Of a DNA stretch of 64,000 nucleotides, positions 23,528 to 62,873 are shown piece after piece. The notes under the pieces are model-generated. The model saw nothing but the letters and a program-made list of their open reading frames with translations. It did not search any database and was not told where the DNA came from. This DNA comes from a virus, in the IMG/VR virus record IMGVR_UViG_3300005542_000007, positions 32,001 through 96,000 of that record; one strand, given 5' to 3'. Position 1 is the stretch's first letter, and the number at the start of each line of letters is the position of its first letter. Both the position numbers and the translations under genes were made by a program.

Positions 23528-24508
23528 ATGAGTCTTTTAATACGTTCAGTTACAAATACAAGTGCAACAGTTCCACTACCACTTATGATTCCTGGATTTG
23601 ATCCAAAGAATCCAGTGGTTGTGGCTCCAAGTGCCACATTGGATATACTTTCTGTAACATCCAGTGATACGCTTCATGCTATGCAGGGACAGTTGACTGC
23701 TTTAGTAGCCGATGGTCATGTCACCGTGGCTGAGTCAATTGAATCAGTAATGCTGTTTGGTACGAGCATTCCATCAGTGTCTGTGGATTTCCTTCCAAGT
23801 CAAATGGATGCAGGACAGGTTTGGTATAATACTACAAGTGGTTTATTGAAATTGTTTAATGGTACTTCAATTCTAACTCTTTCATCTACCATTGTAAATC
23901 CACCCCTTAACTCAGCATCTACATTTGCCGTTCTAGGAGATACTGCCGTTACAAATACTGGAAACACAGTACTTACTGGAGACCTTGGTATTTATCCAGG
24001 TACTTCTATTACTGGATTTCCTCCAGGTACTTATTCTGGGTTTCTTCACAATGCCGATGCCACAGCACTTCAGGCGCATAATGATGCCACTTCAGCCGCA
24101 GTAGCTTTTCAAGCTATGGGCCCTGGAACTGATCTTTCTTCTACAGATCTAGGTGGACATACGGCTGTTCCTGGAGTTTATAGTACAACTGCTGCTGCCA
24201 CATGGTCTGCTGGAAACCTTACACTCAATGGTGCGGGTACCTATGTGTTCTTAATTGGAACCTCTCTTACAATGCCAGCAAGTGCAAACGTAGTGTTAAC
24301 AGGTGGTGCTTTGGCGAAGAATGTTTACTTCGTAACAGGCACAACATTCACCTTTGGTGCCAATGATACTGTTAATGGTACAATTCTAGCAGGTACATCC
24401 ATTACTTTTGCAGCTTCTAGCGTTCTTAATGGTAGAGCTATTTGTTATGGCTCTGCTGGAACAACAGTTACATTCCCAAGTGCAGGTACTGTAACGGTTC
24501 CTTCCTAA
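23528..24508 (+). CDS. Putative head decoration protein with C-terminal DUF3494 ice-binding domain
   Basis: LNSASTFAVLGDTAVTNTG.T..TGDLGIYPGTSITGFPPG...GTILAGTSIT..LNGRA; N-terminal domain shared with 24616 gene. Confidence 0.85.
   Translation: MSLLIRSVTNTSATVPLPLMIPGFDPKNPVVVAPSATLDILSVTSSDTLHAMQGQLTALVADGHVTVAESIESVMLFGTSIPSVSVDFLPSQMDAGQVWYNTTSGLLKLFNGTSILTLSSTIVNPPLNSASTFAVLGDTAVTNTGNTVLTGDLGIYPGTSITGFPPGTYSGFLHNADATALQAHNDATSAAVAFQAMGPGTDLSSTDLGGHTAVPGVYSTTAAATWSAGNLTLNGAGTYVFLIGTSLTMPASANVVLTGGALAKNVYFVTGTTFTFGANDTVNGTILAGTSITFAASSVLNGRAICYGSAGTTVTFPSAGTVTVPS
24341..24418 (+). repeat. 78-bp exact repeat shared with 60329-60406 (IBP domain 3' part)
   Basis: Direct comparison; close variants near 46079 and 62442. 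Confidence 0.85.
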
Positions 24509-24533
24509 GCATAATAAGTTAGTTTTAAGAATC

Positions 24534-24575
24534 TAAATTGGAGGGCTCGAAAGGGCCCTCTAAATTTAGGTTTTA
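24534..24575 (+). terminator. Rho-independent terminator-like hairpin
   Basis: CTAAATT-GGAGGGCTC gaaa GGGCCCTCT-AAATTTAG followed by GTTTT. Confidence 0.75.
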
Positions 24576-60808: not shown

Positions 60809-60818
60809 GGTAAAAATT

Positions 60819-62873
60819 ATGGCATTTTATGGTGCTGGCATATTTTATAATTCTGGAGCTTTCTACACAGGAGCGGTAACTTCTCCTGCACAAGGTATTC
60901 CTATTGATCTCCGTTTTTATAGAACGTCTCAGGATGGAATTTATGTTTTCTGGTGGGGGTTTGACCCAGCATTTATTACTCCTGCGTTAGCGTTAGCGGG
61001 TTTCGATTTAGAGTTGGATACTAGTCCTTTATTCGATTCCCCAAATTTGGCTACTTTTACACAGCTTACGGCGATTACTTTTCAAAATGGAAATGTCCGA
61101 AAAGGATTTGCTGTCCCAGTGGCTGCTCGTATTAATGCCACCGTACAGACTTGGTACGCAAGAGTAAGAACGCATACTGTTTCATTCACATCTGATTGGT
61201 CATCTACATTGATATGGACTATTCCTCAATCTGTACAACAATCTACGGCTGAAGCTTTAATGGAATCATTGCCCGATTTTCATGTTTATGGTAAAGGCGA
61301 TTTATTAAAACCAGTAGATCAACGTAAGACAAATTTGTGGCTTGTGGAAGATATGTATGGGAATCAATTTGATCAGATCTACTATGCTGATTTTCTTACT
61401 CAAACGAATAACTATGTAGATTTATGTGTCGATGAGGATTTATTTCAAAATTTTGGTGTGTTGTTTAATTTTCCTAAACCAGCAAATATGCAGTTTGTAG
61501 ATTATCGCTGGATTTTGATGAATTTGTATTTAGCTTCTTTGGTAGGCAGTACAAACGAAGCTATTATTTTAACTATCCAAGCTTTTACCGGGGTCCCTCC
61601 CCAAATTACCAATGTTAGGGATGAAGATGATTTCTTTCTGGTTACGATTCAAGATCCACCAGTTGTTCCTAGCGGGCCGCAAACCGTTTTTCATACATCG
61701 CAACCTTATATTGACTCAACTTTAAGGATAGAAGATATTACAACAGGACTTTTTGTACCAAGTAGTGCTTATACAACAGATGGGGCATTAGGAACTTGGA
61801 CAATGAACGTAGCAACAACAGATACATTACAAGCCATGTTTGATGTTGGAAATCCTAATGATCCTGCTCCAGTAATATTCGATGCTTTGTCCGGCGCTAC
61901 TGCTTTAACTGGACTTGTAACTTTTACAAATGGCAGTAACAATATTGTTGGGAATAATGCTGTTGTTAGCCCCTCTCTCCTTCTTTCAGCATCTACCTTT
62001 GCTGTTCTAGGAGATACAGCAGTTACCAATACAGGATTTACAGTACTTACAGGAGATCTAGGCGTTTCGCCAGGATCTTCAGTCACTGGTTTCCCTCCAG
62101 GTACCTTTACAGGCTCTTTGCATCAAGGAGATGCGGTAGCAGCCCAAGCTCATACTGATGCAACATCTGCTGCTGCTGTTCTATTAGCTCGTACTCCGGT
62201 CACTGATATTTCTTCAACTGACTTAAATGGTGCTACTCTTACAGCAGGTAATTATCACGCTACTTCAACAGGCACATTCACTGCTACTGGAACACTTACT
62301 CTAGATGGTGGCGGAGACCCAAATTCTATATTTGTACTTTCTTTTGGTACAAGCATGACTCTTGGTGCCAATGATAATGTGGTTTTAATTAATGGTGCAA
62401 ACGCCAATAATGTTTATTGGATAACAGGTACAACCTTTACATTTGGTGCCAATGATACTGTTAATGGTACAATTCTAGCAGGTACATCCATTACATTTGC
62501 TTCCAATAGCGTTCTTAATGGAAGGGCTCTTTGTTATGGCCCTTCAGGAACAACCGTTACATTTCCAAGTGCTGGTACTGTTACTGTTCCACCTCCTTCT
62601 ATTATTAGTGGTACATTATTTTTATCTCAATTAAGTGTTGGACAGGAAATTACAGATCCCAATGGTATTTTTATAGGAGAAATAAGTCAAATAACCGACA
62701 ATACTCATGCCACTTTATTAAATCCTTGGGCAGGACCTACTGAAGTTGTTACTGCGTATAGATTACTTTATACAGATTTGCAACTTCCCCCTCCAATTCT
62801 TTGGGATAAATCTACACTAGCTTTTGGAGTCATCATCACTATTTTTAACCCAGGAAATTTTATCCTGAACTAA
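60819..62873 (+). CDS. Baseplate wedge (gpI-like) protein with inserted DUF3494 ice-binding domain
   Basis: L.QNFG...YR..L......GST..AI...I..FTG baseplate motif; IBP at ~61975-62590. Confidence 0.75.
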   Translation: MAFYGAGIFYNSGAFYTGAVTSPAQGIPIDLRFYRTSQDGIYVFWWGFDPAFITPALALAGFDLELDTSPLFDSPNLATFTQLTAITFQNGNVRKGFAVPVAARINATVQTWYARVRTHTVSFTSDWSSTLIWTIPQSVQQSTAEALMESLPDFHVYGKGDLLKPVDQRKTNLWLVEDMYGNQFDQIYYADFLTQTNNYVDLCVDEDLFQNFGVLFNFPKPANMQFVDYRWILMNLYLASLVGSTNEAIILTIQAFTGVPPQITNVRDEDDFFLVTIQDPPVVPSGPQTVFHTSQPYIDSTLRIEDITTGLFVPSSAYTTDGALGTWTMNVATTDTLQAMFDVGNPNDPAPVIFDALSGATALTGLVTFTNGSNNIVGNNAVVSPSLLLSASTFAVLGDTAVTNTGFTVLTGDLGVSPGSSVTGFPPGTFTGSLHQGDAVAAQAHTDATSAAAVLLARTPVTDISSTDLNGATLTAGNYHATSTGTFTATGTLTLDGGGDPNSIFVLSFGTSMTLGANDNVVLINGANANNVYWITGTTFTFGANDTVNGTILAGTSITFASNSVLNGRALCYGPSGTTVTFPSAGTVTVPPPSIISGTLFLSQLSVGQEITDPNGIFIGEISQITDNTHATLLNPWAGPTEVVTAYRLLYTDLQLPPPILWDKSTLAFGVIITIFNPGNFILN

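Follow-up and report, generated by a model that had tools for sequence, protein, structure and literature searches.

Domains of the ice-binding DUF3494 family within virion proteins of a tailed phage: a probable display cassette, with ice as a candidate ligand

Five domains of the DUF3494 family (Pfam PF11999, Ice_binding) are found inside four proteins encoded in the morphogenesis region of the virus represented by IMG/VR record IMGVR_UViG_3300005542_000007, and we regard it as very probable that they make up an accessory binding cassette displayed multivalently on the phage particle. The DNA analysed here (the window) is a stretch of 64,000 nucleotides, positions 32001-96000 of that record, which is 141,877 bp long and is estimated to be 74% complete. 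What might a phage gain from such domains? Our preferred reading, to which we give a probability of about 0.5, is that the displayed cassette would let virions adhere to ice and slow its recrystallization around them as soil freezes and thaws. The initial annotation of this DNA had located the five domains correctly to within about 30 bases, and its deduction of multivalent display from their presence in structural genes was a fair one. Its picture of a virion-wide system extending from head to baseplate is overstated: the domains do lie within several structural genes, but the placement of two of the four carriers is uncertain, and the set of copies varies among relatives as a mosaic, with no fixed system. 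It had also named no earlier description of a virion-wide system, and our search of the literature (DUF3494 or ice-binding in combination with phage, sheath or virion) found no paper describing an ice-binding fold fused into a virion or inserted in a sheath. We regard this as a genuine and well-supported example of a new display domain on phage particles, a variant of two things already known, the DUF3494 proteins and the promiscuous accessory domains of virions.

Five domains of the ice-binding fold

In an hmmscan search, PF11999 was the sole Pfam match in four open reading frames (ORFs): 23528-24508 (326 amino acids, aa; match at residues 135-306, E 2.4e-38), 44528-47458 (976 aa; residues 377-548, E 4.2e-37), 58394-60808 (804 aa; two stretches, E 7.8e-87) and 60819-62873 (684 aa; residues 396-572, E 9.7e-43). 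A six-frame search of the entire record returned exactly five copies, all inside the window and all free of internal stops, with scores of 124-190 bits against a curated cut-off of 28.7 for the family (E 1e-37 to 1e-57); the same search of 14 control genomes gave no PF11999 match. All five score far under the cut-off of 400 for the NCBIfam equivalog IBP_CFB, and therefore fall outside that narrow subfamily. Two subtypes, A and B, can be distinguished, which are 44-46% identical to each other: the first of the two copies in the fibre protein is of type B, and the remaining four, that of the sheath included, are of type A.

The copy in the 976-aa protein, which is the tail sheath (see below), is 34-36% identical to two proteins of solved structure (phmmer; 6EIO, E 1.8e-28, and 7BWX, E 8e-22). 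Its AlphaFold2 (AF2) model, with a predicted local distance difference test score (pLDDT) of about 94, matches both structures in Foldseek with template-modelling (TM) scores of 0.84-0.89 and, in the case of 7BWX, a root-mean-square deviation of 1.5 Å. As modelled, this domain has the IBP-1 fold, a triangular beta-solenoid braced by a long alpha-helix (residues 420-437) that lies between strands. The other four copies probably share this fold, to judge from sequence identities of 44-82%; the copy in the 684-aa protein was modelled poorly, as a consequence of an alignment in which domain sequences were lacking. A beta-helix of the tailspike depolymerase type was ruled out, all of the strong matches in both sequence and structure being to ice-binding proteins.

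The two structures are those of EfcIBP (PDB 6EIO) and AnpIBP (PDB 7BWX/7BWY), which belong to the same Pfam family and have the same fold as the phage domains, but each of them consists of that one domain, free of any carrier, and comes from a cold habitat (EfcIBP from an Antarctic consortium, AnpIBP from an Antarctic fungus), whereas the phage copies are internal inserts of virion proteins. A phage copy was also matched by SfIBP_1 of Shewanella frigidimarina (PDB 6BG8), in which a larger scaffold with beta-sandwich domains presents the DUF3494 domain and so attaches a biological particle to ice (the idea of an ice adhesin is cited in PMC11645318). That scaffold is a bacterial cell-surface protein, whereas in the phage the domains would be held on tail, fibre and baseplate, in far more copies per particle.

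The four type-A copies are 69-82% identical at the protein level, with synonymous divergence (dS) of 0.7-1.0 and a ratio of nonsynonymous to synonymous divergence (dN/dS) of 0.20-0.28, which indicates that the copies are old and under purifying selection. Over their last 66 codons the proteins are 85-92% identical, yet synonymous differences per site (pS) still amount to 0.26-0.44, so the conservation of this part is mainly due to selection rather than to recent conversion. Recent gene conversion as the main cause of the near-identity of the C-terminal third is ruled out by these same differences; some conversion may possibly have taken place, synonymous divergence in this third being somewhat below that of the middle of the domain.

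Carrier proteins and the trading of the cassette

The 976-aa protein (P0002; 44528..47458, plus strand) is solidly identified as the tail sheath by tblastn, by AF2 and Foldseek, and by gene order. Residues 608-976 match annotated tail sheaths of Tunturi_5, phage G and Gordonia phages (tblastn, E 9e-14 to 2e-10), and the model (mean pLDDT 68.8, with the core and the ice-binding domain mostly at 80-97) matches the sheaths of phi812, R-pyocin, AFP and contractile injection systems (Foldseek, E 4e-9 to 1e-4). P0002 itself has no Pfam sheath match; two other members of the sheath family, P0070 and P0081, bear PF17482. The protein can be divided into a conserved N-terminus (residues 1-125, 44528-44902), an outer insert (126-586) and a conserved core (587-976, 46286-47458), and the type-A domain occupies residues 368-568 of the outer region (45629..46231, plus strand; PF11999 E 4e-37). 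In this the window sheath is like those of the T4 gp18 type, in which variable domains stand between the N- and C-terminal parts of a conserved core; relatives of the window sheath bear other inserts at the same place between their conserved N- and C-terminal parts. From this position of the insert we infer that the domains face outwards on the virion. Apart from P0002, all the listed members of the sheath family are shorter (544-838 aa). The orthologue in G001, a 151-kb genome that is the closest relative by sheath core, has 565 aa, is 89% identical in the core and is without the insert. Upstream of the ice-binding domain the insert also contains two tandem modules of about 88 aa (45114..45609, plus strand; direct repeat D5, 70% DNA identity), which are rich in threonine, alanine and serine and are modelled as disorder (pLDDT about 30). 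These modules gave no Pfam match, no PDB match and no tandem-repeat call, and had no counterpart in an alignment with the sheaths of three relatives (L001-L003).

The 804-aa protein (P0003; 58394..60808, plus strand) is, on good evidence, a tail fibre. It is of the trimeric type, and two ice-binding domains protrude as loops from its shaft, a type-B domain at 59057-59683 (residues 222-430) and a type-A domain at 59879-60493 (both on the plus strand), each of which is preceded by the same short linker (...TGDVTTS, repeat D8). The precomputed Pfam list for this protein comprises PF26696 (PTL_trimer), PF11999 and PF27067, the first and last being two newer families that were taken from that annotation. 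When the protein is aligned with its 641-aa orthologue in G001, the ends match (residues 2-159 and 727-804) and the middle does not, the N-terminal anchor and the C-terminal tip being conserved. The N-terminus had no match in Pfam (E <= 10), NCBIfam or PHROGs.

Three fibre-like ORFs, of 548, 291 and 804 aa, have in common a C-terminal tip module of about 60 aa (25846-26025, 39645-39824 and 60629-60808) and an internal module (25094-25207, 39046-39159 and 59727-59840), the modules being 66-88% identical in DNA; the DNA repeat families D3 and D6 are common to 24616..26262, 38949-39824 and 58394-60808. This suggests that there are several fibres with one common distal domain. The 548-aa member (24616..26262, plus strand) is a paralogue without an ice-binding domain, and shares the anchor of the 326-aa carrier (P0001) as well as the modules of the 804-aa fibre.

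The 684-aa protein (P0004; 60819..62873, plus strand), whose gene follows those for the fibre and for a baseplate J protein, may be baseplate-peripheral or a fibre adaptor. The 466-aa orthologue in G001 aligns without a break to residues 1-378 and 598-684, and between these is a clean insertion of 219 residues (379-597, 61953-62609) that contains the type-A domain. The AF2 model is confident over the N-terminal part (residues 20-345, pLDDT above 90), where it comprises an FN3 domain (residues 20-138, Z about 10), a helical domain and a small beta domain; residues 275-349 resemble a domain in the N-terminal fragment of the CBA120 tailspike TSP4 (Z 9.0). The whole model was used as the query in these fold searches, and they were dominated by the FN3 domain. 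No match to PF09684 (Tail_P2_I) was found anywhere in the record at E <= 10, and a language model gave a weak lead to that family for P0004 (0.78). The N-terminus of P0004 was also without a match in Pfam (E <= 10), NCBIfam and PHROGs. The backbone of this protein (residues 1-378, 60819-61950) is assigned to a family that comprises 148 representatives when clustered at 50% and for which Pfam has no model; 81 members were scanned without any Pfam match to the backbone, and two of the 81 have an ice-binding domain.

The 326-aa protein (P0001; 23528..24508, plus strand) is a small fibre-like protein with an N-terminal anchor (residues 1 to about 105) and a C-terminal type-A domain (23903-24505). 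Over its first 105 residues it has 50% identity with a 193-aa domain-free protein of G001, the rest not being common to the two, and over residues 1-73 it has 45% identity with the start of the ORF that follows, the 548-aa fibre-like protein (BLASTP, E 3e-12). The N-terminus had no match to PHROGs, Pfam (E <= 10), NCBIfam or Atlas features, and none to decoration proteins; the structural lead was PTL_trimer, at a TM score of only 0.35. Placement on the head or neck is possible, and is based on the position of the gene after that for the capsid protein.

How do these results compare with the labels first given to the carriers, namely head, sheath, fibre and baseplate? The sheath is borne out by the C-terminal tblastn matches and by the resemblance of the model to the sheaths of phi812, pyocin and AFP, and the fibre by the trimer family, the shared fibre modules and the conserved ends. 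The more specific naming of the 684-aa protein as a baseplate wedge subunit is backed by gene position only; Tail_P2_I gave no match, the model shows an FN3 and a tailspike-like domain, and the protein is baseplate-peripheral at best. The head label is unproven, the N-terminus of the 326-aa protein being common with its fibre-like neighbour.

In G001 there are no PF11999 domains at all, and orthologues of all four carriers are present, each without the ice-binding domain. It follows that each copy in the window is an in-frame add-on at a permissive site. In the DUF3494 fold the final coil ends beside the initial one (as described in PMC11645318), which means that the domain would tolerate being looped out of a carrier protein. 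Other relatives do have the domain: there are four copies in G002 (a complete genome of 192 kb), three in G003 and five in G004, in orthologous proteins but at different sites. In the orthologues of the 684-aa protein, for example, the domain comes after about residue 310 (site 1) in G002 and G003, after residue 378 (site 2) in the window, and at both sites in G004; and the sheath copies of G002, G003 and G004 are of type B, as against type A in the window sheath. A quick maximum-likelihood tree built from 66 sheath cores requires a minimum of eight changes in the presence of the domain, at least four of them forced by well-supported branches, and on it the window sheath nests in a clade of otherwise domain-free sheaths. 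From the changes on this tree, the domain is a traded cassette that has been gained, lost and swapped between relatives. A type-A domain (70-76% identity) is found, too, in a phage record of a different genome size (50 kb, listed in IMG/VR as complete with terminal repeats), in a 377-aa protein encoded directly after a weak match to a capsid gene. Neither subtype was matched in 50,697 GenBank phage records that represent cultured phages (tblastn, E <= 1), a search in which the low-complexity filter may hide weak matches. A 381-kb giant-virus metagenome-assembled contig (L016) also has a stretch resembling PF11999, with 37% identity across some 100 residues.

Such mobility raises the question of whether the domains might be structural or protective decoration with no external ligand: rigid and very stable beta-solenoid knobs that stiffen the tail and fibres or protect them from proteases, drying or aggregation, or else passengers of recombination. 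The closest relative lacks the domains altogether, and hence neither assembly nor infection depends on them, and the insertion sites vary, as decoration would allow. A mere passenger, on the other hand, would not show dN/dS of 0.2-0.28 over a dS of about 1, nor keep the threonines of one face nearly invariant in 69 homologues (see below), nor be gained repeatedly in four proteins and in another type of phage as well; we consider this explanation improbable. Still less probable, and to our minds very doubtful, is that the domains act as antifreeze for the infected host, or in the lysate, and not on the particle. PF11999 genes on Arctic viral contigs have been read in just this way, as auxiliary genes that protect the host from cold, in an account that does not mention virion proteins (PMC11515562). 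Those contigs carry the same Pfam family, but in the window phage all copies are internal to structural proteins, with conserved assembly parts on both sides; none is free-standing in the record and none has a secretion signal. Synechococcus phage S-SKS1 has been named as carrying homologues (PMC11515562), but PF11999 had no match in its genome.

The candidate binding face and its ligand

If the domains are a displayed cassette, what might they bind? In AnpIBP the strands of the ice-binding B face have been mapped, and the substitutions S153Y and T156Y in that face lower activity (PMC7277481). The B-face segments were transferred from AnpIBP to the phage domains through a HMMER alignment, not through coordinates, and in the sheath copy they are TAVTNT (381-386), SSIT (401-404), TSLTMP (487-492), TTFTFG (514-519), TSITFA (532-537) and TTVTFP (554-559). 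The threonine motifs remarked on in the initial annotation (TSLT, TTFT, TSIT and TTVT) are thus genuine and lie on one face of the fold. The predicted face has the pattern T-[STA]-x-T on five coils plus a loop, giving two ranks of threonines on a flat surface; its 23 outward positions comprise 14 threonines, four serines, two alanines, two prolines and one glycine, and none of the 23 is charged or aromatic. Among 69 phage-type homologues, the threonine of column 4 is kept in 61-69 on four of the coils, and on the first coil 54 have threonine and 12 serine. The mapped B face of AnpIBP aligns with this ladder, which is more regularly T-x-x-T in the phage than in EfcIBP or AnpIBP, and it is plausible that the ladder matches the pattern of an ice-binding site and fits sugar binding poorly. 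Ice, or the ordered layer of water upon it, accordingly seems to us the most likely ligand, with about an even chance of being the correct one; the phage domains are ice-binding by prediction.

The mechanism that we envisage would begin with recombination, which would insert the domain, with the reading frame preserved, at permissive sites in four proteins of the virion: in the outer insert of the sheath, the shaft of the trimeric fibre (twice), the protein encoded after the baseplate J gene, and the small fibre-like protein encoded after the capsid gene. With their anchoring and tip parts retained, the carriers would still assemble into a particle, and that particle would display many copies of one flat, threonine-lined face, about a hundred of which, if other contractile tails are a guide, might come from the sheath alone. 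Such virions might then adhere to ice, and slow its recrystallization around them, during the freeze-thaw cycles of soil. The number of copies per virion is something that we infer, as is the ligand. A broader form of the proposal, which we hold with slightly less than even confidence, is that a whole group of soil phages are natural ice-binding particles, with at least about 100 antifreeze-type domains per virion and a cassette traded among sheath, fibre and baseplate, and that by latching onto ice and suppressing its recrystallization they survive freezing and thawing and stay near their hosts.

Several considerations weigh against ice adhesion. Ice binding cannot be deduced from sequence, and the literature also places DUF3494 in proteins termed 'substrate-binding' and in habitats that are temperate or warm; of twelve IMG sample numbers sought in papers, habitat is documented for only one, a related metagenome, and simply as 'soil'. 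The accessory domains of phage particles usually bind carbohydrates, and threonine is common in the strands of beta-solenoids for structural reasons, so that a ladder alone is not proof. The outward orientation is argued from the topology of the sheath and not from an assembled model, the head placement of one carrier is unsupported, it is a matter of speculation that a virion would gain from adhering to ice, and the absence of the domain from the closest relative shows that it is dispensable.

Some of these points would be accommodated by a particle of the same architecture whose ligand was a polysaccharide or some other ordered surface (host capsule, extracellular polymeric substances, cell-wall glycan, or the organic or mineral matrix of soil). 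Weak, reversible, multivalent adhesion would then retain virions in host-rich biofilm, as Ig-like (immunoglobulin-like) domains are thought to do elsewhere. The promiscuous domains of phages (Ig-like, FN3 and BACON domains, with Hoc of T4 and the adherence-to-mucus model as instances) are small, stable and non-essential, are gained and lost between close relatives, and presumably adhere weakly and multivalently. Display on many virion proteins is a pattern reportedly known from such domains (Fraser et al. 2006; Barr et al. 2013); the phage DUF3494 domains follow the same insertion logic, but are beta-solenoids rather than beta-sandwiches, and would probably have ice rather than glycans as their ligand. 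A polysaccharide would suit the occurrence of the family in 'substrate-binding' proteins of temperate or warm settings, and the presence of other adhesion-type modules, Kelch and FN3, nearby. It might also suit the separateness of the phage-type copies, which form their own sequence group (56-82% identity among themselves, against 45-50% to apparent single-domain homologues) and have an invariant tryptophan where the single-domain homologues mostly have leucine. That tryptophan, however, most likely points into the core, since it aligns with an inward leucine; the predicted face is without the outward aromatic or charged residues that sugar sites usually need; and the nearest characterized relatives are all ice binders. 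We therefore think a ligand of this kind less likely than ice.

Should the domains indeed bind ice, cold adaptation would be built into the particle rather than supplied to the host, the first such adaptation of a virion that is structural and not 'auxiliary', with a bearing on the persistence of viruses in seasonally frozen soils, peat and permafrost; and the sheath lattice, with a domain on each of its subunits, would be a natural model of avidity-enhanced antifreeze, a counterpart of engineered multivalent antifreeze scaffolds. Should the ligand be something else, a new fold would be added to the promiscuous display domains of phages, and part of the DUF3494 family would acquire a role unconnected with ice. 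The 'auxiliary metabolic gene' calls made for PF11999 in polar viromes would merit re-examination. Domains of about 200 residues that fold autonomously and offer clear targets for mutation make the question of the ligand directly testable.

Genomic setting

The window has a GC content of about 40%, and nearly every gene is on the plus strand. Its proteins are also found on a 178,899-bp contig in the protein collection, which indicates a full genome of about 180 kb. The domain-carrying genes are in the morphogenesis module, where a protease fusion (17511-21089) is upstream of the gene for the major capsid protein (21861..22829, plus strand; phrog_2522 major head protein, E 1.5e-35). The capsid protein has no ice-binding domain; its identity is 98% to the orthologue in the domain-free G001 and 24-30% to those of its nearest cultured relatives, Bacillus phage G, the Tunturiibacter phage Tunturi_5 and Myrna-type mycobacteriophages (tblastn), and a host search of 185,579 species genomes found no relative of it. 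By these sequence comparisons the phage has no close cultured relative. A tRNA-Met gene (anticodon CAT; 23148-23222, plus strand) is located in the 700-bp gap that separates the capsid gene from that for the 326-aa carrier, and several fibre-like ORFs are downstream of the capsid gene.

Directly 3' of the sheath gene is an ORF of 176 aa (47500..48030, plus strand) that from its position is probably the tail tube; it is 95% identical to its G001 orthologue and had no match to hidden Markov models. A gp25-like sheath initiator or baseplate wedge subunit is encoded at 56025..56501 (plus strand; phrog_43 and phrog_120 baseplate wedge subunit; PF10934 Sheath_initiator, E 9e-7, a score just below the cut-off), and a Baseplate J or gp6-like wedge protein at 56513..58381 (plus strand; PF04865, E 2.3e-17; phrog_6, E 1.1e-29). 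Ten neighbouring ORFs had no match in Pfam (E <= 10), NCBIfam or PHROGs.

Two Kelch-repeat (beta-propeller) proteins are encoded in the tail module (40272-42785 and 63382-64000, plus strand; Kelch_1, E 1e-23; phrog_16216). These may be receptor binders distinct from the ice-binding domains, and the conserved fibre tip is another possible receptor binder. Finally, we draw attention to an HNH or endonuclease VII-like ORF amid the baseplate genes (53864-54505, plus strand), which has no counterpart at that position in G001, and to a GIY-YIG endonuclease gene that in G001 is immediately upstream of the sheath gene (L001 9335-9979 / L030 365-979); homing-type nucleases of this sort could drive local mosaicism.

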